Source of the DNA: Strigamia acuminata
Taxonomy: Eukaryota
DNA: 64,000 nucleotides
Assembly: GCA_949358305.1 (NCBI GenBank)
Contig: OX442314.1
Span: 4,216,001-4,280,000, forward strand
Direction: 5' to 3'
Part shown: positions 15,213 to 60,600 of the stretch, piece by piece
Layout: every line of letters begins with the position of its first letter
Numbering within the stretch: the first letter of the stretch is position 1
Position numbers and translations under genes: made by a program
Notes under the pieces: model-generated
Told to the model about the DNA's origin: nothing
Database searches by the model: none
What the model saw: the letters and a program-made list of their open reading frames with translations, nothing else

Positions 15213-18200
15213 TGTTGTATTTGGAAATGACTGGATTCTCGTGGATGAAAATATATGAGAGGTTTTATTCGCACACGATACAAAGCGTACGCCGTCTCAT
15301 GAAAAACGAGTGACCGGAAGTACGTTCACGTTACGTCATTGGTCACAAGCGTGGAAAATACACCCAACTCCCCCTAGTGGTAGGAGACCCTCATTCGGGA
15401 TTTCAGGCACATTTGACCTGGTGACACACAATAATAACATACACCTTCTTCACCTGGTCAAAGTCAAAAAACAAAGAGATACAAAATCCATGAATGACAT
15501 TGCTAAAAACTAAAAATGGGCAAGTAAAGACAAAATACACTAGTACAATCGAAGAATAAAAGATTAAAGAGTATAACATTGATGCACAACATATGAAACT
15601 TGAAAAATATTAATCTAGTCCACACATCTTCGAACACCAGCACTGCTTCTGCAAAGTCACCGCCTTCGTCAGCATATCCGCGGCCATCTTGTCGGTTCCC
15701 GCGTGCAGTAGCTCCACTTCTCCGTTCTCGACCTCGTCCTTTATAAAACAATAGCGTAAATTAATGTGTTTCGACCGCTGATGCTGCGCCAGTCCTCGTG
15801 CCAACATCTCGGCCGACTCGCTGTCGGTGTACAGCCTCGCAGCGTCCCCCATCAATTCGCTCAGCCCCAGCTCCTCCAGAAATTTCTTGAGCCAAAGTCC
15901 CTCCTTTACCGCCTCGCTAATGGCGATGAATTCGGATTCGCAGCTCGACATCCCGACACACGTTTGCTTCGATGACTTCCATACTACGCCGGCCCCTGCA
16001 AGTAGAAAAATAAATCCAGTAGTCGATTTAGCGTCCTCGGTGTTGCAGTTCCAGCTCGCGTCCACGTATCCTGTCATCTGATCTTCGTTTCGTACGAATC
16101 GCAATTTCTTTCCTTTCGTCCCTTTCAGGTAGCGTAGAATTCTTTTCCCCATCTTCCAGTGTGACAATCCGTGGCTGTGATTGAAGCGGCACAGGAAGTG
16201 AGTCGCATACGCAATGTCGGGCCTCGTTCCCTGCACGAGGTACATTAGCGACCCCATCAGGCTCTGGTATGGCACCTCGTCTGGGTTTACATCGTCTTCG
16301 GGCTTCGGTTGGTCGTGTTTGACCATTGGCGTCGATACTGGCTTGCATGGTCCCATCTGGAAACTTTCTAGCACCTCCTCGATATAGGCTTCCTGCGACA
16401 CGGTGATCGATCCATTTTCGATGTCGCATTCTACGTCAAGCCCCAAGATTCTTGTCGGTGTGCCCAAATCCTTGATTTCGACCGATTTTCTCAGCAAATC
16501 CGCCGTCCAATTTTCGATCCCGATATTCGACGTCACATTCAGCATGTCGTCGACGAAAATCCCCAGTATTGTTGTCCCGCTTGCGTTGTTAAGCACGTAC
16601 ACGCCTTCGTCCGCGTACAGTCGCCGAAATCCATTCTTTCGGAGTATTTTGTCGAGCGTCAGGTACCACGTGCGCCCGGCTTGCTTGAGTCCGTAGATGG
16701 CTTTTAGAAGCTCGCACACCCACTCTTCTCGGTCTCGCTCTTCGTTCCCGGGTGGCTGTTCCATATACACCTTCTCAAGCAGTTTCCCGTGTAGGTACGC
16801 TGTTTTCACGTCGTATTGTCGTACTCGCCAATTTTGTTGGACAGCGATGGCTAGGAGTAGTCGCAGGCTGGCGAGTCGCATCACGGGCGAGTATGTGTCT
16901 TCGTAGTCCAGTCCCGGCCGTTGCCCGCATCCGACGGCCACCAATCTGGCTTTGTAACGCTCGATCTCGCCCTGCTGGTTCTTCTTGATTTTAAAGACCC
17001 ATCTTGACTTCAGCACATTTGTTGCAACGGCTCTTTTCACCAGTCTCCACGTCTTGAATTCCTCGTGAGATTTTAGTTCCTCCTGGATCGCGCTTTCCCA
17101 CTTCTTGTGTTCCGGGGAGTCCTGCGCTTGGACCACGGTGTTTGGCTCGACGTGCTTCACGCTCTTGCAGTATGTGGCGCCTCTTGGCTGCACCACCAGT
17201 CGGTCTGGCTTCTTCTTGATGCGCTTTGATTTGCGTGTTGTCGTGTTTTCGTTAGCTTCTTCGTCGTCTCTGTCACCGTTTCCAGTGGTGGACTCCTCGT
17301 CTTCGGTGGCACCGTTGTCCGTTTCGTTGGGCTCTGAATTGTCTGTTGTCTGCTCCCCGGTCTCTTGCTCGGCGTCGTACGGCGATACGAAATTCGAACC
17401 TTGAGGCGAAGTCAGCATTTCTCCGCCCCATCTCGCCTCGTTGAATTTCAAGTCGCGTGTCGGCTCTAGCTTCTCAGTTTTCGGGTCGTAGACTCGGTAG
17501 CCCTTTCTGTTGACGCAGTAACCCATAAAAATGACAGGTTTCGACTTCGCGTCCAATTTCTTTCGTTTGGAATTATGGATCCACATCTGCGCAGCACAGC
17601 CAAATATTCGAAAATAGCCAACTTGCTGCTTCCGTCCGCTCCAAAGTTCTTGTGGAATCTTGTCCCCGTTTCCTCTTGTCGAGCATCTGTTGCGCACGTG
17701 TGCGGCCGTCGCGACTGCCTCCGCCCAGAATTTGGAAGGCAAAGCCGCCGCCGTCAGCATCGTGCGTGCTGCCTCCATCAGCGTTCTGTTGCCGCGTTCA
17801 GCGATGCCGTTTTGGGCAGGTGAGAATGGCACCGTAAGCTCGTGGTGGACGCCGTTTGATTTCATGAACTCGTCCATTTCGTGGTTGACGAACTCGCCCC
17901 CGTTGTCGGACCGGATACGTTTAAGTTTCGTGTCGGTTTCGCGTTCCACAGCCGCCACAAACTCCTTAAAGTTCTCGAAAACGTCCGACTTCGACCTAAT
18001 AAAATAGACAAACATCTTGCGACTGAAGTCGTCTATTAGCAAAAACAAATATCGACTGCCGCCAATCGTCTCTGTCAGCGGTCCGCACAGGTCCATGTGC
18101 ACGAGTTCCAATATTTTGGTCGATTGGTCGCTCACGATCGTTTTGAATGGTTTTCTGGCCATTTTCCCGGCTGCACACTCGTCGCATGCCCGCCCGTCCT

Positions 18201-19956
18201 TCTGTATTGGCCCCAAACCGTAAACTGCACCTGTTTCGTGCATTTTCGCCAGTGTTGCCGTGTTCAAATGGCACATTCGGTTGTGCCACACATCGATCTC
18301 GGTCGACTGTTGGCACGTGTTAGCTTGCGCGGTCACCACGGTCTCCACGTTCAGTCTATACACGTCCCCGATCTTCGTAGCAGTCATTATCACTCGGTCC
18401 CCGCTCGATATCGTACACTTCCCGCTTCCGAAAGCAACGAGTAAACCCGCGTCGTCGAGTTTTGGCACCGAAATCAAATTGTCATTTAAATCAGGAATGT
18501 ACAGTACCTCCTTCGCGACCAAGTCAGCGTCGTTCGTAATGAATTTCACGTTCCCGCAGCCCATGATTGGGATTTGGCGCCCATCTGCCAGCGTCACCTT
18601 TCGACTTCCGTCATCTGCCACGAACGATTCGAAAAAGTCCCTGTTCGCCGTCATGTGCCTCGTCGCCCCAGAGTCGAGGTTCCATTGCCGTCCTTCCGTT
18701 TGGTCGATTCTGACCTGAAAAGCAAATTCTGGTCGGGCTTTCACAGCTTTGGCGTTGGCGTCTGGCTGCTGGTCCCTCCTCGCGTTTGTTTTGGTCTGCT
18801 TGGAATTATTTTGGCGTCTCCCGTCGTTCTCCTTCTGGCCGCGACAATCTCTGGCCATGTGCCCGAATTTTTGGCAATTGAAACACTTCACGTGTTTTAG
18901 GTCTCGTTTTCCGTCGTGGTCACCGCTTCGTTCGCCGCCCCGATAGTTGTTCTTCGTGCGGCTGGACAGGTTCACTTTATGCAGTTTCTCGACCACTTCA
19001 TCGTCTCCAGTTTGTCGCGATTCCTCCTGTATGATCATGTGCCGCAGCTTGACCATCGTCACCTCATCTTCGTCGCACATGTCAAACGCTCTCTGGATGC
19101 TGTGGTATGCTTTTGGCAGGTTTTGTATTATTAAAGTTCCCACCTCTTGCTCCGAAATTTCGCCGCCAACAGCTCGTAACTGGTTCACCGTCGACTCCAC
19201 ACGTTGCAGGAACTTCGTGGACGTCTCAGCTTTTTCCCACCTCGTTTTGGTCAGCTCTCGACGCAAAATAGTCTGTCTTTGGCGCGCTCGCCCTCGGTGG
19301 ATTTCCTCCAGTTTCTCCCAGCATTCGCGTGCCGTGTCTTTGTTTATCACGTACACTGTCTGCGCTGGCGACAAGGCCTGGACGATCGCGTTCATGGCCT
19401 TTTCGTCCTTGCCACGCCACGCGTTTCTCGCCGCCGCAGGTCCGTTTACAGGTGCCTCGTCGACGATGACCGTCCACCATTCCGACTTCTTCAGGAATAC
19501 TCGCATTTTGAACGCCCACGTGGCGTAGTTTTCATCCTCCAGTTTTTCGATCCTCATCGCATCTCTGTCCGCCATTTTTGAAGGTTGATGGGCGATCTAC
19601 CACGTGTTGGAAATTAGGCCTAACGTCTCGTGGTCCGGTCAGTGGTCACTCCTTCGTCAAAACGCCCGGAAAAGTCGATACGAGATGCAAAAACTCACGC
19701 AGTGTTAGATGCTGTGGCCCATAACCCTTTGTTGTATTTGGAAATGACTGGATTCTCGTGGATGAAAATATATGAGAGGTTTTATTCGCACACGATACAA
19801 AGCGTACGCCGTCTCATGAAAAACGAGTGACCGGAAGTACGTTCACGTTACGTCATTGGTCACAAGCGTGGAAAATACACCCAACTTCCCCTAGTGGTAG
19901 GAGACCCTCATTCGGGATTTCAGGCACATTTGACCTGGTGACACACAATAATAACA
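15213..19956 (-). mobile_element. Intact Ty1/copia LTR retrotransposon
   Basis: 227-bp TG..CA LTRs at 15213-15439 and 19730-19956, one substitution seen; 5-bp TSD GTTTC; PBS GGGTTATGGGCC (tRNA-iMet half type) at ~19712-19727; PPT GGTGAAGAAGGTGTA at ~15440-15454. Confidence 0.98.
15610..19575 (-). CDS. Copia Gag-Pol polyprotein, 1321 aa
   Basis: Gag, CCHC (CFNCQKFGHMARDC), protease LDSGAT, integrase (WHNRMCH..C..C, HMD, RSDNGGEF, NGIAER), RT (YKARLVA, YGLKQA, FVDD), RNase H (YVDASW) in copia order; uninterrupted. Confidence 0.98.
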   Translation of the reverse strand: MADRDAMRIEKLEDENYATWAFKMRVFLKKSEWWTVIVDEAPVNGPAAARNAWRGKDEKAMNAIVQALSPAQTVYVINKDTARECWEKLEEIHRGRARQRQTILRRELTKTRWEKAETSTKFLQRVESTVNQLRAVGGEISEQEVGTLIIQNLPKAYHSIQRAFDMCDEDEVTMVKLRHMIIQEESRQTGDDEVVEKLHKVNLSSRTKNNYRGGERSGDHDGKRDLKHVKCFNCQKFGHMARDCRGQKENDGRRQNNSKQTKTNARRDQQPDANAKAVKARPEFAFQVRIDQTEGRQWNLDSGATRHMTANRDFFESFVADDGSRKVTLADGRQIPIMGCGNVKFITNDADLVAKEVLYIPDLNDNLISVPKLDDAGLLVAFGSGKCTISSGDRVIMTATKIGDVYRLNVETVVTAQANTCQQSTEIDVWHNRMCHLNTATLAKMHETGAVYGLGPIQKDGRACDECAAGKMARKPFKTIVSDQSTKILELVHMDLCGPLTETIGGSRYLFLLIDDFSRKMFVYFIRSKSDVFENFKEFVAAVERETDTKLKRIRSDNGGEFVNHEMDEFMKSNGVHHELTVPFSPAQNGIAERGNRTLMEAARTMLTAAALPSKFWAEAVATAAHVRNRCSTRGNGDKIPQELWSGRKQQVGYFRIFGCAAQMWIHNSKRKKLDAKSKPVIFMGYCVNRKGYRVYDPKTEKLEPTRDLKFNEARWGGEMLTSPQGSNFVSPYDAEQETGEQTTDNSEPNETDNGATEDEESTTGNGDRDDEEANENTTTRKSKRIKKKPDRLVVQPRGATYCKSVKHVEPNTVVQAQDSPEHKKWESAIQEELKSHEEFKTWRLVKRAVATNVLKSRWVFKIKKNQQGEIERYKARLVAVGCGQRPGLDYEDTYSPVMRLASLRLLLAIAVQQNWRVRQYDVKTAYLHGKLLEKVYMEQPPGNEERDREEWVCELLKAIYGLKQAGRTWYLTLDKILRKNGFRRLYADEGVYVLNNASGTTILGIFVDDMLNVTSNIGIENWTADLLRKSVEIKDLGTPTRILGLDVECDIENGSITVSQEAYIEEVLESFQMGPCKPVSTPMVKHDQPKPEDDVNPDEVPYQSLMGSLMYLVQGTRPDIAYATHFLCRFNHSHGLSHWKMGKRILRYLKGTKGKKLRFVRNEDQMTGYVDASWNCNTEDAKSTTGFIFLLAGAGVVWKSSKQTCVGMSSCESEFIAISEAVKEGLWLKKFLEELGLSELMGDAARLYTDSESAEMLARGLAQHQRSKHINLRYCFIKDEVENGEVELLHAGTDKMAADMLTKAVTLQKQCWCSKMCGLD

Positions 19957-28200: not shown

Positions 28201-29912
28201 GTTAAGAATGGAAGATCCGAGCTGACCTAATTGTTTCGACAATCACTCATTGTGCATGGTGTACTCGTATTACTACTGACAATGCACCACTAGCTAAAGG
28301 CTTTTAGCACATGAGAGTCTTAGAACCACAAGCATTTCTGGAGTCTTGCACATTTAAAGAGGTGTTGATATACTCAAAACCACCACAACGTTTACCTATT
28401 TCAGCCGGTTTACGCCTAACTGTGTACTGTGCTCTACTACGTGGAAAAGTAGTTCTGTGCCTTTGACAATGTTGGTAATCGATCACAATGTCTGGAGTTC
28501 TTTACAAATATGGTGTTATGAGCTACTTTTTTGTGCCACTACACCAGTGATATGGCTCGAACAATAGGTCAACATTGTGGTGGTTTTGAGTATAGATATA
28601 TTGATATAGATCTTTCAAATTTCTTTAGAAAAATCAAACTATTTAACAGCAGCACTTATGATTGCGTTGCTAGGACTTTATCCTCCAGAAGTTTGCAATC
28701 AATATATATGGGTATGATTAAAGTGAAATAAGTGGCACAAAAAATTATTTAACTAACTAATCTAACTAACAAGCAAATTCAATAATTTGCCATACTGTCT
28801 CAAATAACCGCCGGAGTGTTTATTACTTTTCCCGACCCGACCACCCGGCGTCTATATGAAGCGCTGTGCTTATTCGGGCCCGACGCCTGTTTGAACCCGG
28901 TATTAAAATGAGGCCGTATGGTAATCACCCCCGTTTTATACTCATTTTCCACTGAAGAATGACTTAAAATTATGACGGTTTACAATGGCTATAAATGCCT
29001 ATTTTCTATCAAGAAAGCGCTGTTGCGCCAATATGATGGTATTTTTACAATATTCTGTGTAAAACTGATAAATGTCTAGAATAAAGTCATTTATGATGTT
29101 TCAAATACAAAGATGTTCGTTTATTAAGAATAAACACTAATTTCCACATGATACTAAAGTATCACGGCATAATTACGAAGATTCGTCTGCTAAAACCCGC
29201 ATTTGTCAATGCTCCATATTGCCACTAGATGGCGCGATCGCAATTAGCGATAAATTCGAATACGAACTTGAAAACCTCATGATTAAATATAAACGTATAT
29301 TTAATCAAGTGAATAAATTGTGTTAAATATTAATATAAATATATATTAAGTATCTGACATTGTTAAATACAATGTAACTTCCATTTCTGCGGGACAGAAT
29401 GTTTAGCGATCAATCGGTCAACCGATCAATCTGATTGGTGGAACCCATTTCCGGTCCTGGGTATCCAGTTCCGGTTGTAACAAGGATTAGCATAATTTGC
29501 ATAAATGCTCCTCCGTATCCACTTCCGGTGATACGGGATTGGAGGGATTCGTGGAACCCATGTTCCAATTGGATGACTGGATTAATCCTTAAATCCAGTC
29601 AGGTTATATAAACCCAAACAATCGGCCATTCCGCAGCTCTGTTTGATTATTTCTGTTTGGTATTGTTACTTAAGAAGTATGATTCGTTGTTCACGTAAAA
29701 AACCTTTTGGTTCTTTGTTGATTTATTCGCAAAGAACCGTTGCATGATTCTACAGAATCATGCCACCGCCGGCAATTGAAGTCGAAGTGCTGGGATTATT
29801 ATGTTGCATAAATGTTACAGTCTACGGTTGCGACGCCGAAGGAGAACCCGCCGTTGTGCAATTCAGTATCCTCCGGACAGGACCAAGTTGTCTTTTTCGG
29901 TATGAACGTATT

Positions 29913-30055
29913 CCGTTACCACGAGTAGCATCGGTATTGTTGAGAATCGGTTCCTTCACCTGATGGTGCCAAAGCAGTCTGTTTTACAGTAACCACGAGT
30001 AGCACCAAGTGTTTGGCAAGCTGATTCTCATGGTATTCGATGCCAAAGCAGTCGG
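29913..30055 (+). other. Two-fold symmetric RNA hairpin with two identical internal loops (second copy 37427-37569)
   Basis: ACCACGAGTA and CAAAGCAGT each occur twice; the arms between them are complementary with many G.U pairs. Confidence 0.7.
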
Positions 30056-30877
30056 TCTATTATTAGTACCGCGAGAGATAAAACTGCTGTGCGGAGCCGC
30101 GAGCTATCGACCCCTGTGTACGTGGTACCGTCAACCACTCGATGGACGACCGTGCTGCGACGCCGGGGACGCTTGATACCGTTCTGCATGGCAAGGCGTA
30201 TATTCTAATCGATGGCAATTGTGTGTTGCGACGGGAAGCTTAATCTTCATTTTATTTATAACAGAAAAACTTAAACTCGACAACCAGTTGGACCAAAATC
30301 AAGTCAGAAGACTTAATCTCATATTGAACTCAATATAACCGATAAGTTGACGACAACTTATTCCCGAAATATCTAAATAAGAATTCACAACGATATGAAT
30401 TAAATATAATTCATAAGTGGAATATTGATAAGTAAATGAATACATTTACTTACACCAATATCCTCCCAAAGTTGTGGCGGTGCAGACAAAGTCAACCGCA
30501 ATGCTCAGATCATTCGATTTATCGACGTGCGATAGTTTACACAGCGAACCAAGGAAACCAGCGAAGCCGTATCGGACTCCAGGACACAGCCATCCGGCTT
30601 AAGATGACATCTATAATCAGGTCGAGCGATGGGGAAACCGCTCCCATATTCCAGACCCGTAGTGATATTATTCTAGGGCCAGTTGGCCAATTCTTTGTAT
30701 AGTTTAATAGCTGATTTAACTTGCCAAATGTCGGCATTAGTCCTATGTATAATTTAGCTCATCCATATTGTTTGCCAACAATAAACTGTCTTGTATTTAT
30801 CTCGTATTGTATTCACTGTTTATTTATTGCGATCTCTTCCCGGTACCATTGTTAAATGGGAGTTGTGGTCGTCACCG

Positions 30878-31500
30878 TCACACGTGGAGGTCCCACCGAG
30901 ATTAGGTTGCAATTAAATTCGATTGAATTGCAACAGTGAATATTGGAGATAAATATTTAACTAAAAGATTTAAGTTAAAAATAGACAGATTAAATTTTCA
31001 GTTTATATTTCCATGTGAAGAAGTTAAACTGATGAAATAGAAATACGTAGTAGATTTTCCTTCATTATTTTCGTTTGAAGATTTTAGGGATTTCAAAGAC
31101 TACCACCTAATCTCACACGTGGAGGTCCCACCGAGATTAGGTTGCAATTAAATTCGATAGAATTGTAAAAGTGAATTTTGAGATAAATATTTAACTAAAA
31201 GATTTAGTTAAAAAACAGACAAGTTTCAAACCATGTTTATTTTCTTGAGAAACACCAAAACAGTCCTTTAACTAGGAATTTCGGAAGTTATAGACCTATC
31301 ACACGATCACTGAAATAGGTTGCAAATTAATTCGATCGAATTGCAAAAGCGAATCTTGAATCCGATATTAACTAAAAAATTTTAGTTAAAACAGACAAAT
31401 AGATTTTCAGTTTATATTTTCATGTGAAAAGTTAAACTGACGAAATGGAAACGTTTAGTGAACTCTCTTTACTATTTTCGTTCGACAATTTAAGGAATAC
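30878..31500 (+). repeat. Three degenerate ~190-235-bp tandem units that include the LTR end and PBS
   Basis: TCACACGTGGAGGTCCCACCGAGATTAGGTTGCAATTAAATTCGAT at 30878 and 31113; degenerate third unit at ~31298. Confidence 0.85.
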
Positions 31501-34066
31501 GAAGTATTTTAAATAAGAAATCAAAAAAGTTTCGAGTGAAATAAGAATACAGATATTTTTTTTCGAAGTTTGTTTTATTTCGAAAAGCTAAAAACATACA
31601 AGTTTAGAAGGCGGACTTCTTACGAATTTATCTTTCCACCTGAAAAGTTAAAACGAAGAAAACACCGCAACTATTTGGAAATATTTACAAGAAATTAAGT
31701 TTCTTGTAACTGTACGTCGACACCGATAGCCAGCGACCACGCGCCATAGCAATACGCGTCGATCTCCGTATCAAACGCAGCAGGGAAGCTACTCAAACCT
31801 TCAATGCAAGGTGCGAACGAATGCTTGGAAATTATGGCGGACAACAGATAAAAGACAGCGGAGAAATGTTACAGAAGGTTCGTAGAGATTTATTTAAGTG
31901 TCGCGAACTAATTTTTCCACTGCCATCGGTACCGAAGATAATTTAGTTGTTGAAGAAAAACAACACACTCCATTTCGCAGAAAAGATTTGCAAATCGAAA
32001 TGAATATTACCTTTATTTGAAGGAATTAACTATTTTCACAAAAAGTACATTTTTTCCTTCGGGACAATGGAAATTAAGAAAATATAAAATGGCGGCGAAT
32101 GAAGTTGCCGACCACGTAGAATAGTATTTTTTACATTGAAAGTTACGAATCACGAAAAACGCTTTCCCTCGGAAAAGTAAAAGGATTTCATTCAATCTTT
32201 CCTTTCGGAAATTTAACAAGTGTTTTAAGTTTCCAACGATATTTGGGTCTCCCAAATTTTGAGAATTTCTAAATGAAATTTAGCTGTTTGAAAAACAACG
32301 AATATTTTTAGTAATCTAATCGGACATTTTCCCACATGATTTCTTAAAACCGGAATAACAAATCCATTTGTGGCTATGAACTTTGCCACATGAAATATTT
32401 ACGGAGCGAATATTTTTTGATTGGATTGAAGCTTTAAAATCAGATAGCTGATTTAAACGAAGAAAATAAGTTTCAAAGTAATTATTTTTCTTTCGGAAAA
32501 ATCAAATAAATCACCGCTGATGAAAAGTTGTATTTTTCCATTCGAAAAAACTAAGAATTGCACAAGATTTATCTTCTATTTTGAACATAGATTTTATTCG
32601 GAAAAGGAAAGATTCTAGATACATTATTTTTCTCTAAAAATTAAGAATTTAGTCAATTTTCCTAAAGGTTAATGGAATGTCATCATATATTTCGTTCGTA
32701 ATTTACGTGTTAAAGTTTAATCAGAAAAACGATTGAATATGTTTTATTTGCGATAAGTAAAAGAAAGGTTCTTTAAAAATGGAATTTCGATGCAAATCCC
32801 ACAGTAAAGGGAATGTTATGTGTGAGCAATTAACGAAAAGTTGGAATAACTTCATTTTATTTCATTCAAAAGTAGTTGTGAAAAATCAATTTCAAATATT
32901 TTTCAAAGAAAAATTATTTTTATCGGAAAAAAGTAATTTACATGTCCTCGCGCGGACCGAGTAGTAAACTGCTTAATTGTGACATCGATACTGTTATTGT
33001 GTCACGTGTTATACGGAATTCCAAACCAGTGAATTACGAATTTTGGCGCGATAGGAATAGAAGTTTGACAGTGAAAGTTCTCCAGATTTGCCTTTTCATT
33101 TGAAAAGTTCAAATTGAGGAAATGCTGCAGCAGATGAAGGTATTTACGACAATTGAGATTTAAATATTCTTTCATTCAAAAGATAAAAGATCTCTGCAAA
33201 AACATCTCGTTATTAGAGATAAGGGGGACGAAAATTATTAAAACGAATAATCAAAGACACGTCCTTCGTAAATATCGCAAAGGAATAACTAATTGTGAAA
33301 ACAATTGTCCGCTCAGGAAAAGTGGAATTTAGCTAGATATTTTCTTTCGAAAAATCAAAGCAATTGTCATCAAAAAAGAAAGATTTGATGAATAATTTTT
33401 ACCCAAAAGTCTAAAGGATTGTCGAATAGTTTTCTCCCGAAAAACAAGTACACATTTGTACCAATAACTTTATCGTTTAAAGTAAAATTTCGAATATTTT
33501 CTTTTGGAAGATTAGAGAATTAGATAATTTTTCTCGCAAAACAAATTTAAAGAATTTTAACGAATTTTTATTTGTTAAAAAAATTTGTTAAAAAAGGGGG
33601 AGATGGATGGTGAAAATTTATTTTTTCACACTCGAAAAATGGAATTTAAACCCGAAAAAGTAAAGACTTGGTCAAATTATTCTTCCTATTGGAAATGAAT
33701 ACACAATGTTGGGAATCGAAAATAGATTTCAATTACAAAGGAATGATTATTTGAACGATAATTGAATAAGAATAAGAAAAATTGAGAGTTTGAGAAAACT
33801 TTATTAAAGTTGTGGTTGTAACGATATCACACACTAACGGAATAATTAAAAGAAAAATATTTTTTGAAGAAAAGTTATTTAATTATTTGGATTGGTAAAA
33901 ATCCCAAAGTTCAAGAAGATTGAAGTAAGTTTATTTTATTTTCATTTGAAAAATACAATATTTTACGAATGTCTTCCCGAAGGAATTTTATTTTATCGGT
34001 AAAATTGAATCTCGAAGGGAACGGACTTAGTAGAGAACTACTAAATAGATGTAACGTCCTTTATAC

Positions 34067-34165
34067 CATTGGCCGACACTAACATCCGCCAATCAGAAGT
34101 TGGGAGATCTAGGGATCCCCAGCCCCCTGCTATTAAAGGAGGACCAGATCAGATACTGATCATTC
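34067..34165 (+). promoter_or_regulatory. Putative internal Pol II promoter (CCAAT boxes, TATA, Inr)
   Basis: ATTGG at ~34068, CCAATCAG at ~34089, TATTAAAG at 34131, TCATTC at 34160 (TATA at -31 from the Inr A). Confidence 0.6.
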
Positions 34166-34407
34166 GCATCCAGACCAGACCAGAAGACGTGTTCCAGAGT
34201 CATCTTGACCACGCCGTCCCGATTTCAGTCACGATTCGAATTTTGTGTGCCGTGTAACCTGCAAAAGCTAACACGTGTCAAACAAACGCGAAGTTTAATT
34301 TTATTTTGTCAAAAGTAAAGTTTAGAAGTGTTTCTTGTTGAAAAGTGTATTATATTCGTCTTCTTTATAAATTAAAGAATTAAAATCGTCAGATTTTGAA
34401 TTTTTTT

Positions 34408-35889
34408 ATGGCTCAAAAACCATTGAATATGATCGATCCAAAAGGAAATAATAAGCAGACAAACTTAAATTTAAGTTCTGTACCACTTGGCGATCAAACA
34501 GAAAAGATTCCCGATCATTTTACTCTGTATTGTAATCGTCATGGACTGGATAAAACCAAGTTTAAAAATATAATCGAAGCTTCAGACTATGTAAAAGCTA
34601 GGAACTGGCGAGATCGTACCCAATCTCAATCTTCACATCAAGATCCAGTACGGAATCCACAAACATACAGCCGAAACTTAGTGAATCAAGATTCTCATAC
34701 TATGTTTCAAACATCCAGTAGGGGATCTAAGTTAGAAAAGTTTAAACCACCTAATTCGGTAGATAAGGGGGAAGAGAATTATAAACCTAATAATTCTCGT
34801 CCAGAGAGTTCGTTAACTAACCAGTCGGTTGTTCAGAACAAATTAAAACTCGTTTACAATCGAGATCAGCTAATTTCAGTTCGATATGCTAATCCAGCTG
34901 AAGCACAACGATATGTGGCTAGCCTTAATCTGTCGATTAACCTACCGCTATCAAAAGAATTGGGAACCGTAAACAAAAGTTTTGGGCCACCAATATCAAC
35001 GCAAAGGAAAGATATTCGGACTCCAAACAAACATTTGCAGTCAAATAACGTACAACAACGTGCCCGATCGCCGATCACAAACTCATGTTTGCGGACGTAT
35101 GATTTGTCTACCAAGAAGAGTCCCCAGCCAAGACAATTCTACCTAACGCCCATTTCAAATCGAAAAAAAGTCAAGCAAACTTTTCCCTTGAAAAAGTATT
35201 ACCAACACGATAATGAGAATGATTTTAAACCTAAAAAAGAAAGTTTTTTGACTAACCCACGGGAGATCCGGTATCAATTCGAACAGTATTGTAAACAATA
35301 CCAGTTAAATTCAGCTGAATTTAAAAATATAAACGAAGCGCAACAATTCGTATTTCGAAATCAATACCGTAACCAACGACTAAAACCCGTCCCAGTCGTC
35401 AATCTGACGGAGATACAACAATTTGCGTCTGGAAAGCAACCCTGCAATATCCAGAATAATTCATCTCAACGAGAGGAATTAAGAACTTCAAAAAAGCGTT
35501 TTCGGTCACCAAGTCCAGCTGGTGATGAAGAAACTTCAAGTACAAACCAACATGTTCAAAAACTGACTGAAAACCCAGGTTTCCAATCATCAGTTCCACG
35601 ACTTAGAGTCAAATATAGATCCCCTCGTTTGTTGCGGGATTTCACAATTCCAAATATGGGTCCTTTCCACGTATGGTTTTCCAATGAGGGTCCCATTCAT
35701 GTATGGTTTTCCAGAGATGACCTAAAACAAAAAGTTGGGTCGTCACGGTCATTTACACTGCCAAGTCAGTACACTGTATGTAACTGCCCAAAGGAAAAAC
35801 GTCGAAAGAAATCAGTACAGCAGGCTGAGAGATCTCGGAAATTCGCAAATATGCGAGCTCAATATTTAGCAAAGAATCATGTTGATTAA
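34408..35889 (+). CDS. Orphan 493-aa protein carried by the non-autonomous LTR element
   Basis: Long intact ORF in otherwise stop-rich AT DNA; internal repeated motif; no gag/PR/RT/RH/IN motifs recognised. Confidence 0.8.
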   Translation: MAQKPLNMIDPKGNNKQTNLNLSSVPLGDQTEKIPDHFTLYCNRHGLDKTKFKNIIEASDYVKARNWRDRTQSQSSHQDPVRNPQTYSRNLVNQDSHTMFQTSSRGSKLEKFKPPNSVDKGEENYKPNNSRPESSLTNQSVVQNKLKLVYNRDQLISVRYANPAEAQRYVASLNLSINLPLSKELGTVNKSFGPPISTQRKDIRTPNKHLQSNNVQQRARSPITNSCLRTYDLSTKKSPQPRQFYLTPISNRKKVKQTFPLKKYYQHDNENDFKPKKESFLTNPREIRYQFEQYCKQYQLNSAEFKNINEAQQFVFRNQYRNQRLKPVPVVNLTEIQQFASGKQPCNIQNNSSQREELRTSKKRFRSPSPAGDEETSSTNQHVQKLTENPGFQSSVPRLRVKYRSPRLLRDFTIPNMGPFHVWFSNEGPIHVWFSRDDLKQKVGSSRSFTLPSQYTVCNCPKEKRRKKSVQQAERSRKFANMRAQYLAKNHVD

Positions 35890-38800
35890 CATGATATGAT
35901 ACACAAAGATTCCCCGATTATAGTGTAAACAGAAAATCCTCTTCTAAAAATCATGACCTCTCTTCTAAAGAAAAGGGGGACAAAATATAAAGTTAAAATT
36001 AACAATTCTCGAAAAGTAATATTACAGTATTAAAAGACAACTAGTTTAAATTAAAATTAGTCAATTGTACAAAGAATACCAAGTGACTCCGGTCATGACA
36101 ATTAAGGGGGACATTTTGATTCTTAAATTGTCAACTCTTATCATCTAAAAGCTATTTATTGTATATTTATAGCGATACATCTGACTAGGCATATGAAATA
36201 AATATTTTGTGATAACACAAATGATGATTTTATGTATGACGAAAGTTTCTTCAAAAAGAAGACTTGGAAATAAATTCTGGACTTGAATTTAGGCTATTAG
36301 AAAAGATTATTTCGGCAGAAAATCAGAACTTAGATAATTCAAGTTAGTTTATGTAAACTCAAATTCGAAATTGGAAGTCACGGTATCTCCAAGATACATC
36401 AAGTCCGAAAATAGCATTTATGCTAATTAGGAGAATAACGAAAACTCTATAAAATATTATATAGTTGTGTTATTAAGGGGGATGTATGACGGTTTACAAT
36501 GGCTATAAATGCCTATTTTCTATCAAGAAAGCGCTGTTGCGCCAATATGATGGTATTTTTACAATATTCTGTGTAAAACTGATAAATGTCTAGAATAAAG
36601 TCATTTATGATGTTTCAAATACAAAGATGTTCGTTTATTAAGAATAAACACTAATTTCCACATGATACTAAAGTATCACGGCATAATTACGAAGATTCGT
36701 CTGCTAAAACCCGCATTTGTCAATGCTCCATATTGCCACTAGATGGCGCGATCGCAATTAGCGATAAATTCGAATACGAACTTGAAAACCTCATGATTAA
36801 ATATAAACGTATATTTAATCAAGTGAATAAATTGTGTTAAATATTAATATAAATATATATTAAGTATCTGACATTGTTAAATACAATGTAACTTCCATTT
36901 CTGCGGGACAGAATGTTTAGCGATCAATCGGTCAACCGATCAATCTGATTGGTGGAACCCATTTCCGGTCCTGGGTATCCAGTTCCGGTTGTAACAAGGA
37001 TTAGCATAATTTGCATAAATGCTCCTCCGTATCCACTTCCGGTGATACGGGATTGGAGGGATTCGTGGAACCCATGTTCCAATTGGATGACTGGATTAAT
37101 CCTTAAATCCAGTCAGGTTATATAAACCCAAACAATCGGCCATTCCGCAGCTCTGTTTGATTATTTCTGTTTGGTATTGTTACTTAAGAAGTATGATTCG
37201 TTGTTCACGTAAAAAACCTTTTGGTTCTTTGTTGATTTATTCGCAAAGAACCGTTGCATGATTCTACAGAATCATGCCACCGCCGGCAATTGAAGTCGAA
37301 GTGCTGGGATTATTATGTTGCATAAATGTTACAGTCTACGGTTGCGACGCCGAAGGAGAACCCGCCGTTGTGCAATTCAGTATCCTCCGGACAGGACCAA
37401 GTTGTCTTTTTCGGTATGAACGTATTCCGTTACCACGAGTAGCATCGGTATTGTTGAGAATCGGTTCCTTCACCTGATGGTGCCAAAGCAGTCTGTTTTA
37501 CAGTAACCACGAGTAGCACCAAGTGTTTGGCAAGCTGATTCTCATGGTATTCGATGCCAAAGCAGTCGGTCTATTATTAGTACCGCGAGAGATAAAACTG
37601 CTGTGCGGAGCCGCGAGCTATCGACCCCTGTGTACGTGGTACCGTCAACCACTCGATGGACGACCGTGCTGCGACGCCGGGGACGCTTGATACCGTTCTG
37701 CATGGCAAGGCGTATATTCTAATCGATGGCAATTGTGTGTTGCGACGGGAAGCTTAATCTTCATTTTATTTATAACAGAAAAACTTAAACTCGACAACCA
37801 GTTGGACCAAAATCAAGTCAGAAGACTTAATCTCATATTGAACTCAATATAACCGATAAGTTGACGACAACTTATTCCCGAAATATCTAAATAAGAATTC
37901 ACAACGATATGAATTAAATATAATTCATAAGTGGAATATTGATAAGTAAATGAATACATTTACTTACACCAATATCCTCCCAAAGTTGTGGCGGTGCAGA
38001 CAAAGTCAACCGCAATGCTCAGATCATTCGATTTATCGACGTGCGATAGTTTACACAGCGAACCAAGGAAACCAGCGAAGCCGTATCGGACTCCAGGACA
38101 CAGCCATCCGGCTTAAGATGACATCTATAATCAGGTCGAGCGATGGGGAAACCGCTCCCATATTCCAGACCCGTAGTGATATTATTCTAGGGCCAGTTGG
38201 CCAATTCTTTGTATAGTTTAATAGCTGATTTAACTTGCCAAATGTCGGCATTAGTCCTATGTATAATTTAGCTCATCCATATTGTTTGCCAACAATAAAC
38301 TGTCTTGTATTTATCTCGTATTGTATTCACTGTTTATTTATTGCGATCTCTTCCCGGTACCATTGTTAAATGGGAGTTGTGGTCGTCACCGTCACAAAAT
38401 CTCCCTTCCTAATAAAGGTTTCATATCCCAACATATTTATCCTAATTGATGCCAACTTCATCCCAATTTTTATTTTTATTTTTATTGTGATCAGAATGCT
38501 CTATTTTGCATAATTACATCAATCGAGGGACACTTTATCTAGTTCTAGGGGGGTCATGCAACCTGTTGGACACCCAAACTCTTATTGCTCATCAGGTCCA
38601 CCCCAACACGTCTCCCCTTTACATTTAGCAAAGTCGCATGTCACGTCATAGCAAACTTTTAATTCTTATAGGTATATAACCTATCATGTTTTAATGAATA
38701 AAGCCAGTCTATCCTGAACTAACATAACATGATCGCTCGAAACTCGTATCTCCCTTGCCAATAAGGTTCCACATCTCAACATATTTATCCTAATTAATGC

Positions 38801-52610: not shown

Positions 52611-54575
52611 AATCATTTTTCTGCAGAGTCTGGTCAGCTACAGTACAGAAATGCATCAGGTTTATACAGTTTAATCGAATTGGTGAACGCTACACTCCAA
52701 TGCACTCTTACAACACCAAATAATTTGTGACCATCTTTCACCAAAAACAAAACAAAAAGAAAAGAAACAAACTGCATTTTGTTGCAAGAGAAAACAAAAG
52801 TTTTTTCCATTCAGTTATTAGGCATAAGATTCAGCAAACTGGAACCAAGTCAGCTGCACAAAAGACCCTTTATAGTCCAATACAAAAGCAAATAAAAGAA
52901 ATTCAACTGCACACAAAATCTCTGTATTCTATTCCATTAGGCCTATAGGATTCAGCACTAATATTTGCAAGAAATGGATCATGAATTCAAGGATGAATGA
53001 AACAAACCTGTGTTTTGAATAAATTTCCTTCGGGATAGAGAAATACAAAAAGGAAAAATAAACTCTGCATTCTGTTGCAAGAGAGAACAAATTGGAACAA
53101 AAATCCATTCAGTCATTAGGCCTACGAATATCAGCACTAATACTGAAATATTAAAACGAACGAACGATCGATCGATTTTACTGAGAAATGAAATGTGTGT
53201 TCCTCATATGAATTCTCGGATGAATGGAATACGAGATGCACAATTGAAAACCATCAAAATGGAAATAGAAAAACGATGAGAAAAGAACAAGTAAAGAACG
53301 AGGCGAAGCAAAGTGAACAATGGCCGACAACGAGCGAGACTCGTAACACGAGACACGAGACAGCACACCAGAGAATTGACAATTGCTAACTCAATAAACA
53401 AATGTACAACATACAAAGTGTTAAAACGTACAATTCAACCTGGTGGTAATTCAAGGTGTAATAAAAATTAACTACAGTTATTATGTTGTGACCCGACTGG
53501 ACCGGGGTCAACGAAGAGTTTCTCTCGTGACCTCGTTTCGGGTGTAAGGGGAGCCGCAAGCGCGTCTCCCTTCCCTCAGTGCATTGACATCTAGTCAATG
53601 GACAGGCGTCTGCCCTGAGGGAGTGGGGATGGCTCGTCCACCCCACCATTGGGTGATTCCGGTCACCTGTCAACCCCGCTTTGTGCAACGGAATGTGCCT
53701 TGCACTGAGCGGGCAGAACCAACACAACCATCAAACGAGAAACACACGTAAACCCGTCGTCCTACAAGATCAGGCCCAAGTAAAATATACTGGGATTGAC
53801 CAAGGACAAAGGACAATTTACCGTGAGTACGTTTGGTCAGTGTCAAACTCCGCAGAGTAACCTGCGAGATAAGATTACCACACTATTTTAGCACACCAGC
53901 TAGAAATAGTAAAAACCACTCCAGTTTAGCGAGTTGTGCAGACAAACGGTCGCACAAGCCTAAACTGCAGTAAAACCACGACGAGCGTTCCCGCCGCTGT
54001 GTGACCGCCGGGAGCCAGAAGAGTCCGCCGCTGTGTGATCGCCGGACACCACACAAAAACCTAGACAACAGCCCGAAGTAAGCCTTTTAACTAAGCATTC
54101 ACTCGCGCCCGACCAGCGTGAGCCCGAAGGACCAGCCAGAGACGAGCCGAGGACGCCATATTGCCACGCCGGCCCAAGACGACACCACGTTGCCACAACG
54201 AGGACGCCATCTTGGACACGACCGAGACAACAGACGACCTCGCCGATTCCAGCCAGCTTTCATCATACCTTTACCTTTCCATTTCCCTTCACCCATTCCG
54301 ATTTACCTTTTACCTACCTTTTATATATATATATATATAAGATATATCTGTACATTGTCCCACAGAATAAATCTATATTATATTTTACCTTTTATATCTG
54401 TGTAATCATTTCTTTGGGTAAACCGCTTGAGCAAAGCGGTAGTGAGTTAGTCGAATTAAGTAATCAACCCACGAGTTAGCGACGGTTAGAGTTGAGCGCG
54501 ACACGTGGGGGCCTGTCCGGGATCAAGTCGAATAACTGATTCTAACCTGTGATTACATCATACCCAAAGCAAGAA

Positions 54576-57500
54576 ATGGCAGATAATACCCGAGTAACAG
54601 ATTCCGACTCCGACGCAAACAAGAGAGCCGGCAGTCGTAAAGGCGCCGACTATCACTTGCGATCTGGAGGTCCCTTACCCAAAGCCTCAGCGCACGAAGC
54701 GAGGCAAAAACGGCGTAAGCCTAAACCCGATCGTAGAAGCGCATCCGAGGCATCGCACCCGTCTCGCACCGAGACGAGGCAGCGATTGGACGAGACAGAG
54801 CGGGGTGAAGAGCAATCTCACTCCAAACTGCCGCGTTCTAACCGTGACGGCGAGACGAGCGGAAACGAGGTTTTATCCCGTAACCAATCGCCTCGTCTAA
54901 CGCACGACACCGAGGTGGGCAGTCCGAAAGCAGCGTCTCCGATACAAAAGACGGCCTCAAATACGACCGCTAATTCGGCACTAAACACGCCAGTTACGCA
55001 CAGTCGACCAGCCTCGGTAGTGTCTGAAGGGCACAAGTCCAACTCGTCCTCTGTCAAGCGTGTTTCAAGCCAGCCTTACAGCGTCTCGGGCACCTTGATT
55101 GATGCGATGCAGTTGGCACAAGCGGAGGGAGTGAGATACACCCTTCCGACGGGGAAGATTACAGTGTACGAAACGTTACAAATCGTACGTGCAGCTTTAA
55201 AAGCGCACAGTGTATCCCCACAAATCACCATTGTTGAAGGTGCACACGCTCAACAATTGGTTGATTCCGCTCAATTTGAAGCGGATGCAGAGAACGAGGC
55301 TCGACAAGCCATTCGCGAGAGACGGAGGAAGCTGGCGGAAAGAGAAGCGCAAGCTCTCGAGTACGGCAGAACCCAGCCCAATCCGACGACTCCCGAGGAG
55401 GTAGAAATAGTTGACCGAGCCCTGAGAGCACATCGATATGCTTTCCACTCGCAACAAGAAGCAGAACGAGCATTTATGGCCAGATTGCGACGAGATGACC
55501 CGAAATCCGTTCGCAAACCAGAGGTCAGTTCATCCGAGCTGTCCGACGAGAGCCTAGAGGGAGACCCAAAGCGCACGCCGAAGGCCAAACCCAAACCCCA
55601 GCCGGAGAGGGCGACACCAGCTACTCCGAGCAAGAGAGATGCGTCGGCCAGAGAACAACAAACTCGGCCCCGCATGAAAGCTCTCGATTCAGCCACAAAT
55701 AATGCGATAACACGGTTAATCAACGCTAATAATGCTAGGCGAAATGAAGAGCAAGCTCTCACAAGCCAACAGCAAGATAATCCGCAAGGGACTGAGTGGC
55801 AACAACCAGTACCCATCCTTAAAGACGACGAGTCGTCAAGGAGACAATCGCATGATCGCACCTCTTCGCGAGGAGAAGGCAAACGCGACGAAAGACCGAA
55901 ATATTATCGCTACGGAAATAGTGATTCGTCGTCAGATGGGCTGGAGTCAAATGCACCCAGTCATCACGATTCGGAGAGAGGTTCCGGAGAAAGACGAAGG
56001 GAAAGAGAGCGCGATGAACGCAGGGAAAGGGAACGTGACGACCGTCGTAGGGGCCGGAAAGAGTCAAACTCTTCACGGCGCAACCCGCCACGCCACTCAC
56101 CGTCTCCTGACCCCAGCTCCGACCCCTCATCCAACGACGACAGACGAAAGGAAAAATCAAGTAATCGCCGGAAGAGATCCAACTCTCCGCGCGATAGAGA
56201 GAAACGACGTCGATCGGAAAATAGCGACCACCGACGGGAGGAGTTTCAGGACCTTCCCCGACAAAGCGCGTTTACCGATTCGACGGGTCGGCAGTATACG
56301 ATGGGAGAGCTTGGAAGAGCCCTACTCGGCTCGTTGAAGGCCGAGGGAATCGATCTGAGCAAACGAAACGATCGTAATCGTAGCACTGGCGACCGCGTAA
56401 AGAAAAAATACGCTGTCTCCCGACGTGACACCATGAGTGTTACCGGGAATATTAGGTGGCAATTTTATATTCAGAACCGTTTCGACGGGTCATGGAAAGC
56501 GGGAGATCGCTTCCTTGACGAAGTAATTCGAATTAAGACTGCCACTAAAGCCACCGTAGGAGACATGCTCACCCACGGTATTGTCGAGCTAATGACAGGC
56601 TCGGCACGTGAGTGGTACCAAGGATTGAAAGGCGTCAATTGGGACGACTTTTTAATGAGATTCGACCTGCGCTACGGCGAGACACCCGAAGAGGTGAGCC
56701 GAAAGATGCGAGGTCTTCGCCAGATGCCTGGTGAAACCATAATGGATTACGACATTCGCGCCAGATTGTTGTTCGAAAAGGCCCCGATGGAATTTCACGC
56801 CACGGGATTCAACCTTTTCTTTCTCGGCGGTTTGTCGGAATACTCGCAAAGGGTGCTACTTGAAGAAAGGGCACCGACAGGAGGTAGCTACGAGGAGATG
56901 AGCGCCTTCCTGTTCGAGAACACGATAGATATCGAGAAGAGATATTATTCCGCTTTACCAGAAGCGGAGAAAGCAGCGACCGCAAAACGTCTCAAGTTGA
57001 GTGCGGAAAGATATGGGGCGACAGATAAGATTATGCGCCCTACTGAATATCTTAGCGGTATAATGGAGCTGGCAGAAGCTAGCGTTGGTTTGCAAATAAA
57101 AAATAAACTGACATCCCCGCTGCCTTCCAACCCTTTGGCCGCCCCTAAAAAGGCACCGACAGCGTCAGCCATGCAAGCGACACTGGAGGAGGTCAAGGAG
57201 GGGGAGGAAGCCGAACAAAATGTCGGAAAATCAGACGAAAAAGAAGAAAAAGACGATTATTCGACGGACGAAGAAATACGAAGCTATCGCGATACCTTAT
57301 CAACGGGTTGCGATGAGGAAGGACCGCTAGTACATCTCATCCATCGAGATAGAGCGGTAGAAGAATTTCGCGCCAGGTTAAAACCAAATGCCGGTCGAAT
57401 TCCGAAGTATTTTCGGAAAAATTACACGCCACCGTCGAAAGCAGACCCTGAAAAGAAAAAATCGACTGAAGCCCCAAGAGACAAATCAAATATTCGCTGT

Positions 57501-57659
57501 TTCAAGTGTAACCAACCGGGCCACTACTCCAATGAGTGCCCAAGAACAGCGAAAGAAGACGCTAAGTTTGACGCGATAATGAAGCAGATGGCAGAGATTA
57601 AACTCGCCATGGCAAAAAACGAGTCAAAAAACGAGTCAGCGCAGGCGGCGAAGAAATAA
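54576..57659 (+). CDS. gag: Gag (1027 aa from the first ATG) with a long low-complexity N-terminus
   Basis: Capsid-like LMTGSAREWY..WDDFLMRF..LRQMPGETIMDY; CCHC CFKCNQPGHYSNEC. Confidence 0.92.
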   Translation: MADNTRVTDSDSDANKRAGSRKGADYHLRSGGPLPKASAHEARQKRRKPKPDRRSASEASHPSRTETRQRLDETERGEEQSHSKLPRSNRDGETSGNEVLSRNQSPRLTHDTEVGSPKAASPIQKTASNTTANSALNTPVTHSRPASVVSEGHKSNSSSVKRVSSQPYSVSGTLIDAMQLAQAEGVRYTLPTGKITVYETLQIVRAALKAHSVSPQITIVEGAHAQQLVDSAQFEADAENEARQAIRERRRKLAEREAQALEYGRTQPNPTTPEEVEIVDRALRAHRYAFHSQQEAERAFMARLRRDDPKSVRKPEVSSSELSDESLEGDPKRTPKAKPKPQPERATPATPSKRDASAREQQTRPRMKALDSATNNAITRLINANNARRNEEQALTSQQQDNPQGTEWQQPVPILKDDESSRRQSHDRTSSRGEGKRDERPKYYRYGNSDSSSDGLESNAPSHHDSERGSGERRRERERDERRERERDDRRRGRKESNSSRRNPPRHSPSPDPSSDPSSNDDRRKEKSSNRRKRSNSPRDREKRRRSENSDHRREEFQDLPRQSAFTDSTGRQYTMGELGRALLGSLKAEGIDLSKRNDRNRSTGDRVKKKYAVSRRDTMSVTGNIRWQFYIQNRFDGSWKAGDRFLDEVIRIKTATKATVGDMLTHGIVELMTGSAREWYQGLKGVNWDDFLMRFDLRYGETPEEVSRKMRGLRQMPGETIMDYDIRARLLFEKAPMEFHATGFNLFFLGGLSEYSQRVLLEERAPTGGSYEEMSAFLFENTIDIEKRYYSALPEAEKAATAKRLKLSAERYGATDKIMRPTEYLSGIMELAEASVGLQIKNKLTSPLPSNPLAAPKKAPTASAMQATLEEVKEGEEAEQNVGKSDEKEEKDDYSTDEEIRSYRDTLSTGCDEEGPLVHLIHRDRAVEEFRARLKPNAGRIPKYFRKNYTPPSKADPEKKKSTEAPRDKSNIRCFKCNQPGHYSNECPRTAKEDAKFDAIMKQMAEIKLAMAKNESKNESAQAAKK

Positions 57660-60600
57660 TTTCTCGACCGTCTGCGCCATTCATGAAGAAAAAGGGGTTT
57701 AACAAAGGGTTCGATAAGCCGCCACCAGTCAAAGAAATGGGTAGTGACATAGCTAACGCCCAAATTCAAGACAGGGCCAACAACGCTTTGCAGGTAATTA
57801 CCGCAAACGCTGAGGCTGAGGCGGAAGAACCGAACCTACTGCTTGAAGAATTACCTCAAGTAGTCGAAGACACAGAAGAATTTCGTGTTTTCATGTGCAA
57901 CGTGGCGGTCGAATACACCAACCGCCTATGCATGTTGCCCATGACAATAGAACGTGAAAAAATTATGGGACTGCTAGACTCGGGAGCAGATCGCTCGTTC
58001 GTTTCCGAAGACATAGTAGCATCATTGGGTCTCACCGATAAGATAAAAGGCGTTAATAAAAATATACGTCTAAAAACCGCCAACGGAATGGCGCGTCCAA
58101 AAGGAGTTATATTATTGACCATGGAGTGGCTCGGAGGGGTAGAACAGCACCCTTTCCTGGTCCTGCCCACATGCGACAGAATTTTTCTGTTGGGCTTAGA
58201 CCTCATGGCGTCAATGGAAATACAACCCAATCCAATAACGAAATCTTGGAATTATATCAGAAATGATAAGGAAAGACCCGCAATTGTCGTGCCACCAGCT
58301 CTTGTAAAAGAAGCGGCCGACAAGACACAGTGGGAGAAAGGCCTAAAGAAATTCGTTCAAGATTACGATTTTAAAGCATTCGTAACAGAATTGCAACGGG
58401 ACAATGTAGTGGAAACGCTTGTCGCCGACGCCGCTTTAGAATTAAACGAAGCGGCAGCCCTACGAAGGGTCCTACTTAAATATGAGGGGATCCTGTCGAA
58501 AAAACCGGGCCGAACGAATAGGGCTATTCACGAAATTAAATTGACGGATAATAAACCTATACGAGTTGCGTATAAGGGAATGAACCCGCAAAAACGTGAA
58601 ATAGTGCAAAAAATGTGCCAAGAAATGCTAGACAGTGGCATTGTCTCCGAGGCCCAGGGAGAATACGCGACGCGAGTTGTGCTCGTGATGCGCCCGGGCT
58701 CGGACCCACGCCTATGCATTGATTACCGCCCATTAAACGCGGTGACAGAAATAGATCCCATACAGATGCCGTCTATCGAATCCATTTTGAGAGAGCTTAG
58801 CCCCTTTTCTTGGGTTACGACGATGGATCTGTCGAAGGGATACTGGCAAGTTGAGATGAGGCCAGAGGATAAGTTAAAAACAGCATTTTACTCGCCAATT
58901 GGACGGTTGATGTTCAACGTCATGCCATTTGGTTTAGTGAATGCTCCCAGTACCTTTCAGAGACTAATCGAAAGCGTATTGGGTGATATCCTGCATCAGT
59001 TTGTGTGGGCATACCTAGATGACATAGTTATTGCCTCTAAAACATTCGAAGAGCACATTGAGCACATCGACCAAGTGCTCACCCGGCTGGCAAAAGCTGG
59101 GTTACACGTGCATCCGGGCAAAAGCAAGTTCTGTCGAAAGGAGCTTGCCTTCCTGGGTTATCGCATTGGAGTCAATGGTTTAGCTATTGGCCCCGAAAAA
59201 ATCGATGCGATTAATCGTTTCCCACCACCCGAGGACGTTAAAGGTGTCCAACGGTTTATGGGAATGATAAACTTCTTCGGCAGGTTGCTACCGGGTCTAG
59301 CTGAAGTGGCAGCCCCAGTTACCGACCTCCTGAAGAATGAAAACGAATTTGTATGGTCAAATGAGTGCAACATCGCATTTAATGCAATAAAGAGGATGCT
59401 GACGGAAGTCGGCGTAATGCCTCTACCCGACTTAAACCGGCCGTTCATATTACACACGGACGCCAGCAGAGTTGGGTTAGGAGCGGCGTTGCTCCAAACA
59501 CACGTGCGCGACGGAGTCGAACAAGACCTGCCGTGCATGTTTATAAGTCGCAAACTCCAAGGCGCTGAAAAGAATTACAATGCCACCGAGTTGGAGTGTT
59601 TGGCCGTTGTGTGGGCCATAAGGAAATTCAGAGATTATCTCGAATATACCAAATTTGTGGTCCACACAGATCATCAAGCGTTACAATGGCTGATGAAATT
59701 AAAAGAGCCAGCCGGTCGACTAGCCAGATGGCAGTTAGAACTGATGGCATGCGACTTGACCATTCAATACAAGCCCGGCAAATATAACGTCGTGGCTGAC
59801 GCTCTGTCACGGGCACCAGTGTCAGATCCAATCGACGCTGACGATGATGGCGAGGATGACTCCCGCATCATTTATTGCCCTACGAGTTGTCACCGTTGGG
59901 ATTTAAGGAAGATGAATGAAATTCCCACCGCGTCTCCGGCAGATGTAAAATTCTGTGGATTTTGGACGCGGTTATACCAACCAGCTGCTGACAATTACCC
60001 AAATGCAAGGAAGGAATTTAAGCTAGAGCGGAGAATAAATGACCCGCTTCTAAGCGCCTTCCACGCTCATGTCGGCGAGCAGATGCAAAGCAGTCCCCCG
60101 ACAAGGGAGGAAATAATTGTGCAACAAAAATTAGACAAGAAATGTCAGGACAGAGCTAGATTCGTACTGACAGGAAAATATCCGCCCAATCTAACCAGAA
60201 GGCAGAAGCGTCGTTATGCACACGAATCCATAGATTACCTATTGGATGACGGCCTTTTAGTGAAACATCACCCAAATCACCAAGATGACTTGAGTGAATC
60301 GGACACCGCAGTAAAGGTAGTAATACCTGCTTCCTTAATCGGTCGCGTGCTGTGGTTGTTACACGGGCACCCGCTTGCGAGCCATGCGGGAGTAAGCAGA
60401 ACACTCTATCGTGCTACACAGCTTTTTCACTGGACAGGGATGAAAAAAGATATTGCTCTTTTTGTCCACCAATGTCAGCGATGTCAAGCGTGCAAGCCGA
60501 GGAGTAAATCACCATTCGAAACTATTTTCTTAGGGCCTTACGCGCCTTTTGATTGTTTAAGTGTCGATGTGATGGGCCCAAAACCCGTTACGGGAAATAA

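Follow-up and report, generated by a model that had tools for sequence, protein, structure and literature searches.

The type-D CTE, carried by MPMV/SRV-1, is described as a two-fold symmetric motif of ~130 nt whose lobes each bind NXF1:NXT1, which is able to form a symmetric dimer (PMC4330390). The loop of each CTE unit is reported to contain the NXF1-binding hexamer AAGACA (PMC4330393, PMC4174252), and bases A13, G14 and A15 are said to flip out for TAP binding (PMC5961109). According to PMC4338338, the CTE is thought to have been duplicated from a one-loop element in intron 10 of NXF1, and the same source states that no homologue was found in Drosophila or C. elegans. Further background on the CTE is given in PMC7551171, and general background in PMC4488659 and PMC3621094. 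As to how gypsy-type elements bring their long unspliced RNA out of the nucleus, the sole invertebrate mechanism that we met in a targeted literature search is protein-based, the export of Cer1 being reported to need its own CERV protein (PMC10309623); that search returned no report of an invertebrate LTR with an RNA element of two loops.

The DNA analysed here (the window, a whole stretch of 64 kb) comes from an animal and is AT-rich; it contains part of an ENaC/ASIC-type gene and a Tc1-type transposase, along with one copia and one gypsy element. The retroelement that concerns us is bounded by two plus-strand LTRs of 1912 bp (5′ LTR, 28971-30882, with ends TA...CA; 3′ LTR, 36485-38396), which are 100% identical and are flanked by an unstranded target-site duplication, AAAT (left copy 28967-28970, right copy 38397-38400). 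The primer-binding site (PBS, 30885-30903), which we take to be of the tRNA-Gln type, begins with TGG two bases past the end of the 5′ LTR, and a polypurine tract (PPT, 36475-36482) precedes the 3′ LTR. Since both lie on the plus strand, the genomic RNA is the plus strand. The two LTRs, the target-site duplication, the PBS and the PPT are thus present without pol, and the 5.6-kb interior gave no gag or pol family match; the element is a very young, non-autonomous LTR retrotransposon. It appears to be gypsy-like, judging by its 4-bp duplication and by an LTR-PBS junction resembling that of the gypsy element at 53486-61753. Contigs from three runs of the same organism cover the element and include many variant copies.

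Several other features of this neighbourhood were recorded. The LTR start, as set by the target-site duplication, is TA and not TG, and a 2-base spacer is found at both the LTR/PBS and the PPT/LTR junctions. At 30878-31500 the LTR end, the PBS and the downstream leader stand in tandem, with a second complete PBS at 31120-31138 and a decayed third unit near 31291. The separate gypsy element (53486-64000) has an unusually long gag ORF (1037 aa) and an intact pol, beyond which it continues for more than 2 kb that contain short ORFs; the twin-loop motif is missing from its LTR. A young copia element (15213-19956) has 227-bp LTRs that are 99.6% identical and, on the minus strand, one ORF of 1328 aa.

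The sole long ORF of the twin-loop-bearing element (34408-35889, plus strand) encodes 493 aa with no known family, and protein searches gave no family, relative or atlas match, one of the relative searches having been limited to candidate proteins of 271-863 aa. In the product a helical-looking 34-aa module is repeated (35% identical), perhaps with a third, weaker copy, and a basic patch lies close to the C-terminus. Upstream of the ORF are a TATA-like word (TATTAAA, 34131) and an initiator-like word (TCATTC, 34160). They fall in a promoter-like block (34050-34270) that begins with TGTAAC and could be a solo LTR captured from a different element; in run X6 there is a separate match to 34161-34221.

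Within the 5′ LTR, the segment 29913-30055 is built of two 74-nt units in register that can pair with each other, and an identical copy stands in the 3′ LTR (37427-37569, also plus strand). On the plus strand, its parts follow one another in exactly the order given by a first-pass annotation: loop strand X copy 1 together with the first three bases of arm 1 (29916-29930, containing AGUA), arm 1 (29928-29969, 42 nt), loop strand Y copy 1 (29967-29979), a small terminal hairpin of a 3-bp stem and a 5-nt loop (29979-29989), loop strand X copy 2 (29990-30004), arm 2 (30002-30043, 42 nt), which pairs with arm 1, and loop strand Y copy 2 (30041-30053). Including outer helices, the full rod is predicted to span 29888-30081. 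The repeated words are real, yet longer than that annotation had stated, at 13 nt each: word X is the same at 29918-29930 and 29992-30004, and word Y at 29967-29979 and 30041-30053, both with a 74-nt period. Elsewhere in the window the exact words occur only in the other LTR. As direct repeats the arms are only 28% identical, yet they cross-pair at -24.5 kcal/mol, and the arrangement of twin words with cross-pairing arms arose in none of 150 dinucleotide shuffles of the LTR. Ten looser matches were found in the window, and the arms cross-pair only in the two LTR copies (-24.5 versus -1.5 to -5.3 kcal/mol). The layout is therefore not due to chance, and the shuffles, along with arms that are unlike but cross-pair, point to a duplicated unit whose ends were kept while its middles became complementary. 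A single-loop form was not found in the window.

The TATA box that had been placed at 29605 is present (29605-29612, plus strand), and the twin-loop element lies ~300 nt downstream of it, inside the LTR. From the spacing, transcription would start near 29635. The only AATAAA of the LTR downstream of the TATA box (30780-30785, plus strand) is 725 nt downstream of the twin-loop element. The element is thus predicted to lie in a long R region and hence at both ends of the genomic RNA, with the poly(A) site predicted near 30800; being upstream of the AATAAA, the copy in the 3′ LTR would be transcribed even if transcription had another upstream start. We rejected an LTR intron from the best-looking donor, at 29677, because most copies are without that G: the position reads A at about 93-100% of depth in runs X1 and X3 and at 87% in X2. 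Splice signals on the plus strand of the element comprise two GTRAG words only, with no strong acceptor by a crude pattern.

Folding energy and variation among copies differ in what they say about the strand. The z-score is -1.69 for the plus strand, a value reached by 10 of 200 shuffles, and -3.62 for the minus strand, reached by none of 200; the minus strand scores better because the loop words pair there through G.U. In a sliding scan with 150-nt windows other parts of the LTR score equally well or better, so that the region is not outstanding by stability. Strongly folding or palindromic LTR parts lie at 30321-30470 and 29346-29645 (z down to -5.9 and -3.9, both strands), and run X6 also matches LTR islands at 30385-30647. 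The plus-strand fold proposed by the first-pass annotation is accordingly upheld by the variation described below and by the orientation of the retroelement, but not by energy. Its pairing scheme fared unevenly as well: in the minimum-energy fold of the plus strand the long arm pairs with a probability of ~0.9, but the inner GGTGC/GCACC helix reaches ~0.1 and the small hairpin ~0.2. The symmetric fold lies 0.6 kcal/mol above that minimum (-59.0 versus -59.6), and for this predicted fold the two like internal loops in two-fold symmetry were borne out, the loops being kept in diverged copies. In each loop ten strand-X bases would stand opposite nine strand-Y bases. The model suggests the order two pairs, a C.A mismatch, two variable pairs and then AGUA opposite (C/A)AA, adjoining the arm, so that each loop looks like an irregular helix of the kind that proteins read.

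To see which positions vary, we turned to run X3, in which 52 contigs lie on 29900-30070 and 17 substitution rows and one deletion are listed, variants below 1% of depth or close to contig ends being excluded. Nine of the substitution rows fall in the long arm and eight of them keep plus-strand pairing, the sole pair-breaking one being at 29934. All five arm transitions that hit a Watson-Crick pair turn it into G.U on the plus strand (A.C on the minus strand), where such an outcome is expected at 18 of 36 positions (p ~0.03, which is indicative, as the copies are related). In the small hairpin, six substitution rows and the deletion all fall within the 5-nt loop (29982-29986) and none in the six stem positions, although several of these rows stem from a single contig. 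Five of the six hairpin-loop substitutions disrupt the competing minimum-energy fold, which favours the symmetric structure originally annotated. The other two rows lie in loop strand Y. Depth over the inner loop is ~10 times that of the flanks in this run, but summed contig depth is no copy number.

More distant copies show the same pattern of kept loops and changing arms. By eye, in a diverged X3 record the end of word X stands in exact register with 10 of 12 letters kept while the adjoining arm keeps 7 of 18, and in a diverged X6 record the corresponding counts are 7 of 9 and 9 of 21. Word Y appears in two loose ends one base off register (8/9 and 7/9 letters). Two X2 contigs depart from the window sequence in arm 2 and rejoin it at word Y, in register or within one base of it, and one X6 record matches the window at 29952-30016 only, that is, at the inner loop, with unlike flanks. 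When the diverged arm 1 of X6 is set by eye against the diverged arm 2 of X2, all 12 outer positions pair and a 7-bp helix follows; two of the 12 pairs are changed on both sides and five on one side relative to the window. This comparison is across runs and unphased, and it assumes that 29963-29969 of the X2 contig are as in the window. At two adjacent loop positions strand X reads AC, GC or GU, while strand Y reads GU, GC or AC, a complementary set that is likewise unphased, and the depth sums at 29975 (232 + 150.4 + 82.1 = 464.5) suggest that one family pairs AC with GU. Overall, the arms of diverged relatives fall to ~40% identity while the loop words stay in register, and the loop conservation on which the original proposal would stand or fall was thus found, partly by eye. 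Taken together, the copies make it very probable that this is a plus-strand RNA structure with conserved twin loops under selection.

The comparison with Rfam that the first-pass annotation had called for matched no family: over 28500-38500 there were five matches, at E 2.3-4, all far below the gathering score. In viral contigs the exact pattern gave six matches, none of the six with a second copy of either word, the single-unit pattern gave two, neither with a second copy, and the degenerate inner-loop pattern gave none. The latter had 17 matches in metagenome contigs, none with a second X word, although two of these loci, with the same sequence, carry a second Y-like word; we judged the viral and metagenome matches to be chance. 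The viral and metagenome contigs thus yielded no homologue outside this species, and as they hold little animal DNA, this is weak evidence of absence. Runs X4 and X5, which come from two other organisms, had no contig on 29900-30070, and neither had X6, for which a wider stretch had given one; a zero of this kind can be false. Some readings of the motif were also dropped. Mimicry of SRP helix 8 was rejected since two positions that must be fixed vary among copies; in a T-box-like reading of tRNA beside the AGUA, the would-be codon varies and looks paired; and the twister, hairpin and pistol cores had no match by eye or in Rfam. Whichever partner binds it, the element is an uncatalogued structured RNA.

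As to that partner, the reading that we prefer, while holding it as tentative, is that the twin loops of the rod dock a host export protein, most likely NXF1:NXT1. A one-loop hairpin would have been duplicated and its halves would later have become paired with each other, a course of events also proposed for the type-D CTE. The plus-strand LTR RNA would fold into a rod with two matching internal loops, each an irregular helix in which a few varying pairs are followed by AGUA opposite (C/A)AA, loop-E-like with one non-standard position. These loops would be bound by a protein of the host, in all likelihood NXF1:NXT1, the receptor for mRNA export, and the genomic RNA, which is long and for the most part non-coding, would thereby leave the nucleus. 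Between LTR families the loops stay fixed even where more than half of the arm sequence differs, which fits a slowly changing host partner, and a modest likeness to the CTE strands, above chance in a post hoc comparison, favours NXF1:NXT1 in that role; the inverted loops and 42-nt arms make the fit to the NXF1:NXT1 dimer platform doubtful. The more specific proposal, an invertebrate LTR retrotransposon with its own CTE-type export element, in which a duplicated NXF1-binding loop, related by descent or by convergence to the motif that type-D retroviruses would have acquired from the NXF1 intron of their host, is set head-to-head and not tail-to-tail, is one that we put forward with considerable doubt.

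The same rod might instead present its loops to a protein of the element family. This could be Gag of an autonomous partner, with the rod as a signal for packaging or dimerisation, or an accessory protein of the Rev/Rec kind, for which the 493-aa product is a candidate. We regard this as the main rival, possible though on the unlikely side. An element without pol has to retain the signals for its packaging, accessory proteins are known to have response elements within LTRs, such as the RcRE reported in the U3 of HERV-K (PMC11379458), and the dependence of Cer1 on CERV (PMC10309623) offers a parallel; the internal repeat (35% over 34 aa) and basic patch of the 493-aa ORF would also suit such a role, but neither an RNA-binding family nor any relative could be recognised for this ORF. 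Moreover, near-fixed loop words in a diverging LTR fit a host partner at least equally well, and the predicted location in R would place the rod also on short transcripts of the LTR, whose packaging would be undesirable. A host factor other than the export receptor, acting in stability, germline localisation, 3′-end formation or translation and using the AGUA loops as loop-E-like docks, is an unlikely partner in our estimation. Loop E is described as AGUA opposite GAA (PMC4695836), here AGUA faces (C/A)AA, and the motif is reported to tolerate isosteric changes (PMC6633198); the position between the TATA box and the AATAAA would agree with such functions. However, the G that caps the standard motif has given way to another base here, where the models of a viroid survey are described as having all kept the A.G cap (PMC6633198), and this explanation points to no specific factor.

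Two further accounts do without a bound RNA partner. The repeats might act as a DNA-level enhancer with a 74-bp period, or be a neutral duplication with an inverted repeat and no RNA role, which we consider improbable. Word X resembles a RUNX site, the copies of both words keep an exact direct register, folding of the plus strand gives a weak z-score and several of the arm changes are at CpG. Yet sites in double-stranded DNA leave the one-sided G.U bias (five of five) unexplained, as they do the sparing of the hairpin stem and the complementary changes on both arms; CpG decay affects both strands alike, one variant of word X loses the RUNX-like pattern, and the element stands downstream of the TATA box. 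Most improbable of all would be a new self-cleaving ribozyme in the form of a symmetric dimer, like the hammerheads in the LTRs of retrozymes. A non-autonomous LTR element, a conserved RNA motif in its LTR and a duplicated design would fit that picture, but the five Rfam matches down to E 5 include no ribozyme family, which leaves the self-cleavage idea of the first-pass annotation without support; no pseudoknot or known catalytic core was seen, and with a cleavage site in R the genomic RNA would be cut at two places.

Were the export reading correct, the direct capture of NXF1 by a symmetric RNA would predate the vertebrate retroviruses and extend beyond them, and NXF1 would read a second loop sequence; its binding here would mean a broader RNA code for the receptor and would bear on the origin of the CTE. 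If a protein of the element binds, a metazoan retrotransposon would have, in the rod, a defined site for packaging or of the Rev-like kind. In either case the element is compact, 143 nt with nearly invariant twin loops, known from one species and with covariation that is unphased.

When set against known systems, the element is CTE-like by design but not a member of the CTE family by the features tested. It has in common with the MPMV/SRV-1 CTE a rod of similar length made of two cross-pairing copies of one unit, two like internal loops in two-fold symmetry (here in a predicted fold), purine-rich loop strands, and carriage on the genomic RNA of an LTR retroelement (here predicted). Using SRV-1 loop strands taken from published primers, we found that strand X agrees at 7 of 14 ungapped positions, with an equal distance between the two flanking helices, and that strand Y shares a 6-nt run; the joint p is 0.003 when random positions of the window serve as the null and 0.019 with shuffles of the same composition, for a post hoc comparison with one chosen target. 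The CTE likeness claimed by the first-pass annotation thus stands for the duplicated design and, modestly, for the loop strands, but not for the rest: AAGACA does not occur anywhere in the LTR, the loops are inverted and the arms, at 42 nt, are long. Where the CTE has the flipped-out triad A, G, A, the ungapped equivalents here are G/A, A, G. As inferred from text and primers, the open side of the CTE loops faces the centre and that of the twin loops faces outward. The CTE lies upstream of the 3′ LTR, whereas the twin-loop element is inside the LTR, in the predicted R, of an invertebrate gypsy-like element.

Other counterparts resemble it in single respects. The RcRE of HERV-K is likewise a structured RNA in an LTR, but is described as 433 nt long with a known binding protein (PMC11379458). 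Cer1 is likewise an invertebrate gypsy element with an accessory ORF, for which the source consulted describes no RNA element (PMC10309623). With loop E, the sarcin-ricin motif or S-turn, the loops share an AGUA in an asymmetric internal loop adjoining a helix, kept in nearly all variants; the opposite strand is GAA in the former and (C/A)AA here, a comparison at the sequence level only. Finally, the single-loop CTE in intron 10 of vertebrate NXF1 offers a model of origin, a one-loop hairpin duplicated in a retroelement, and each 74-nt unit of the twin-loop element has complementary ends and could once have folded alone.
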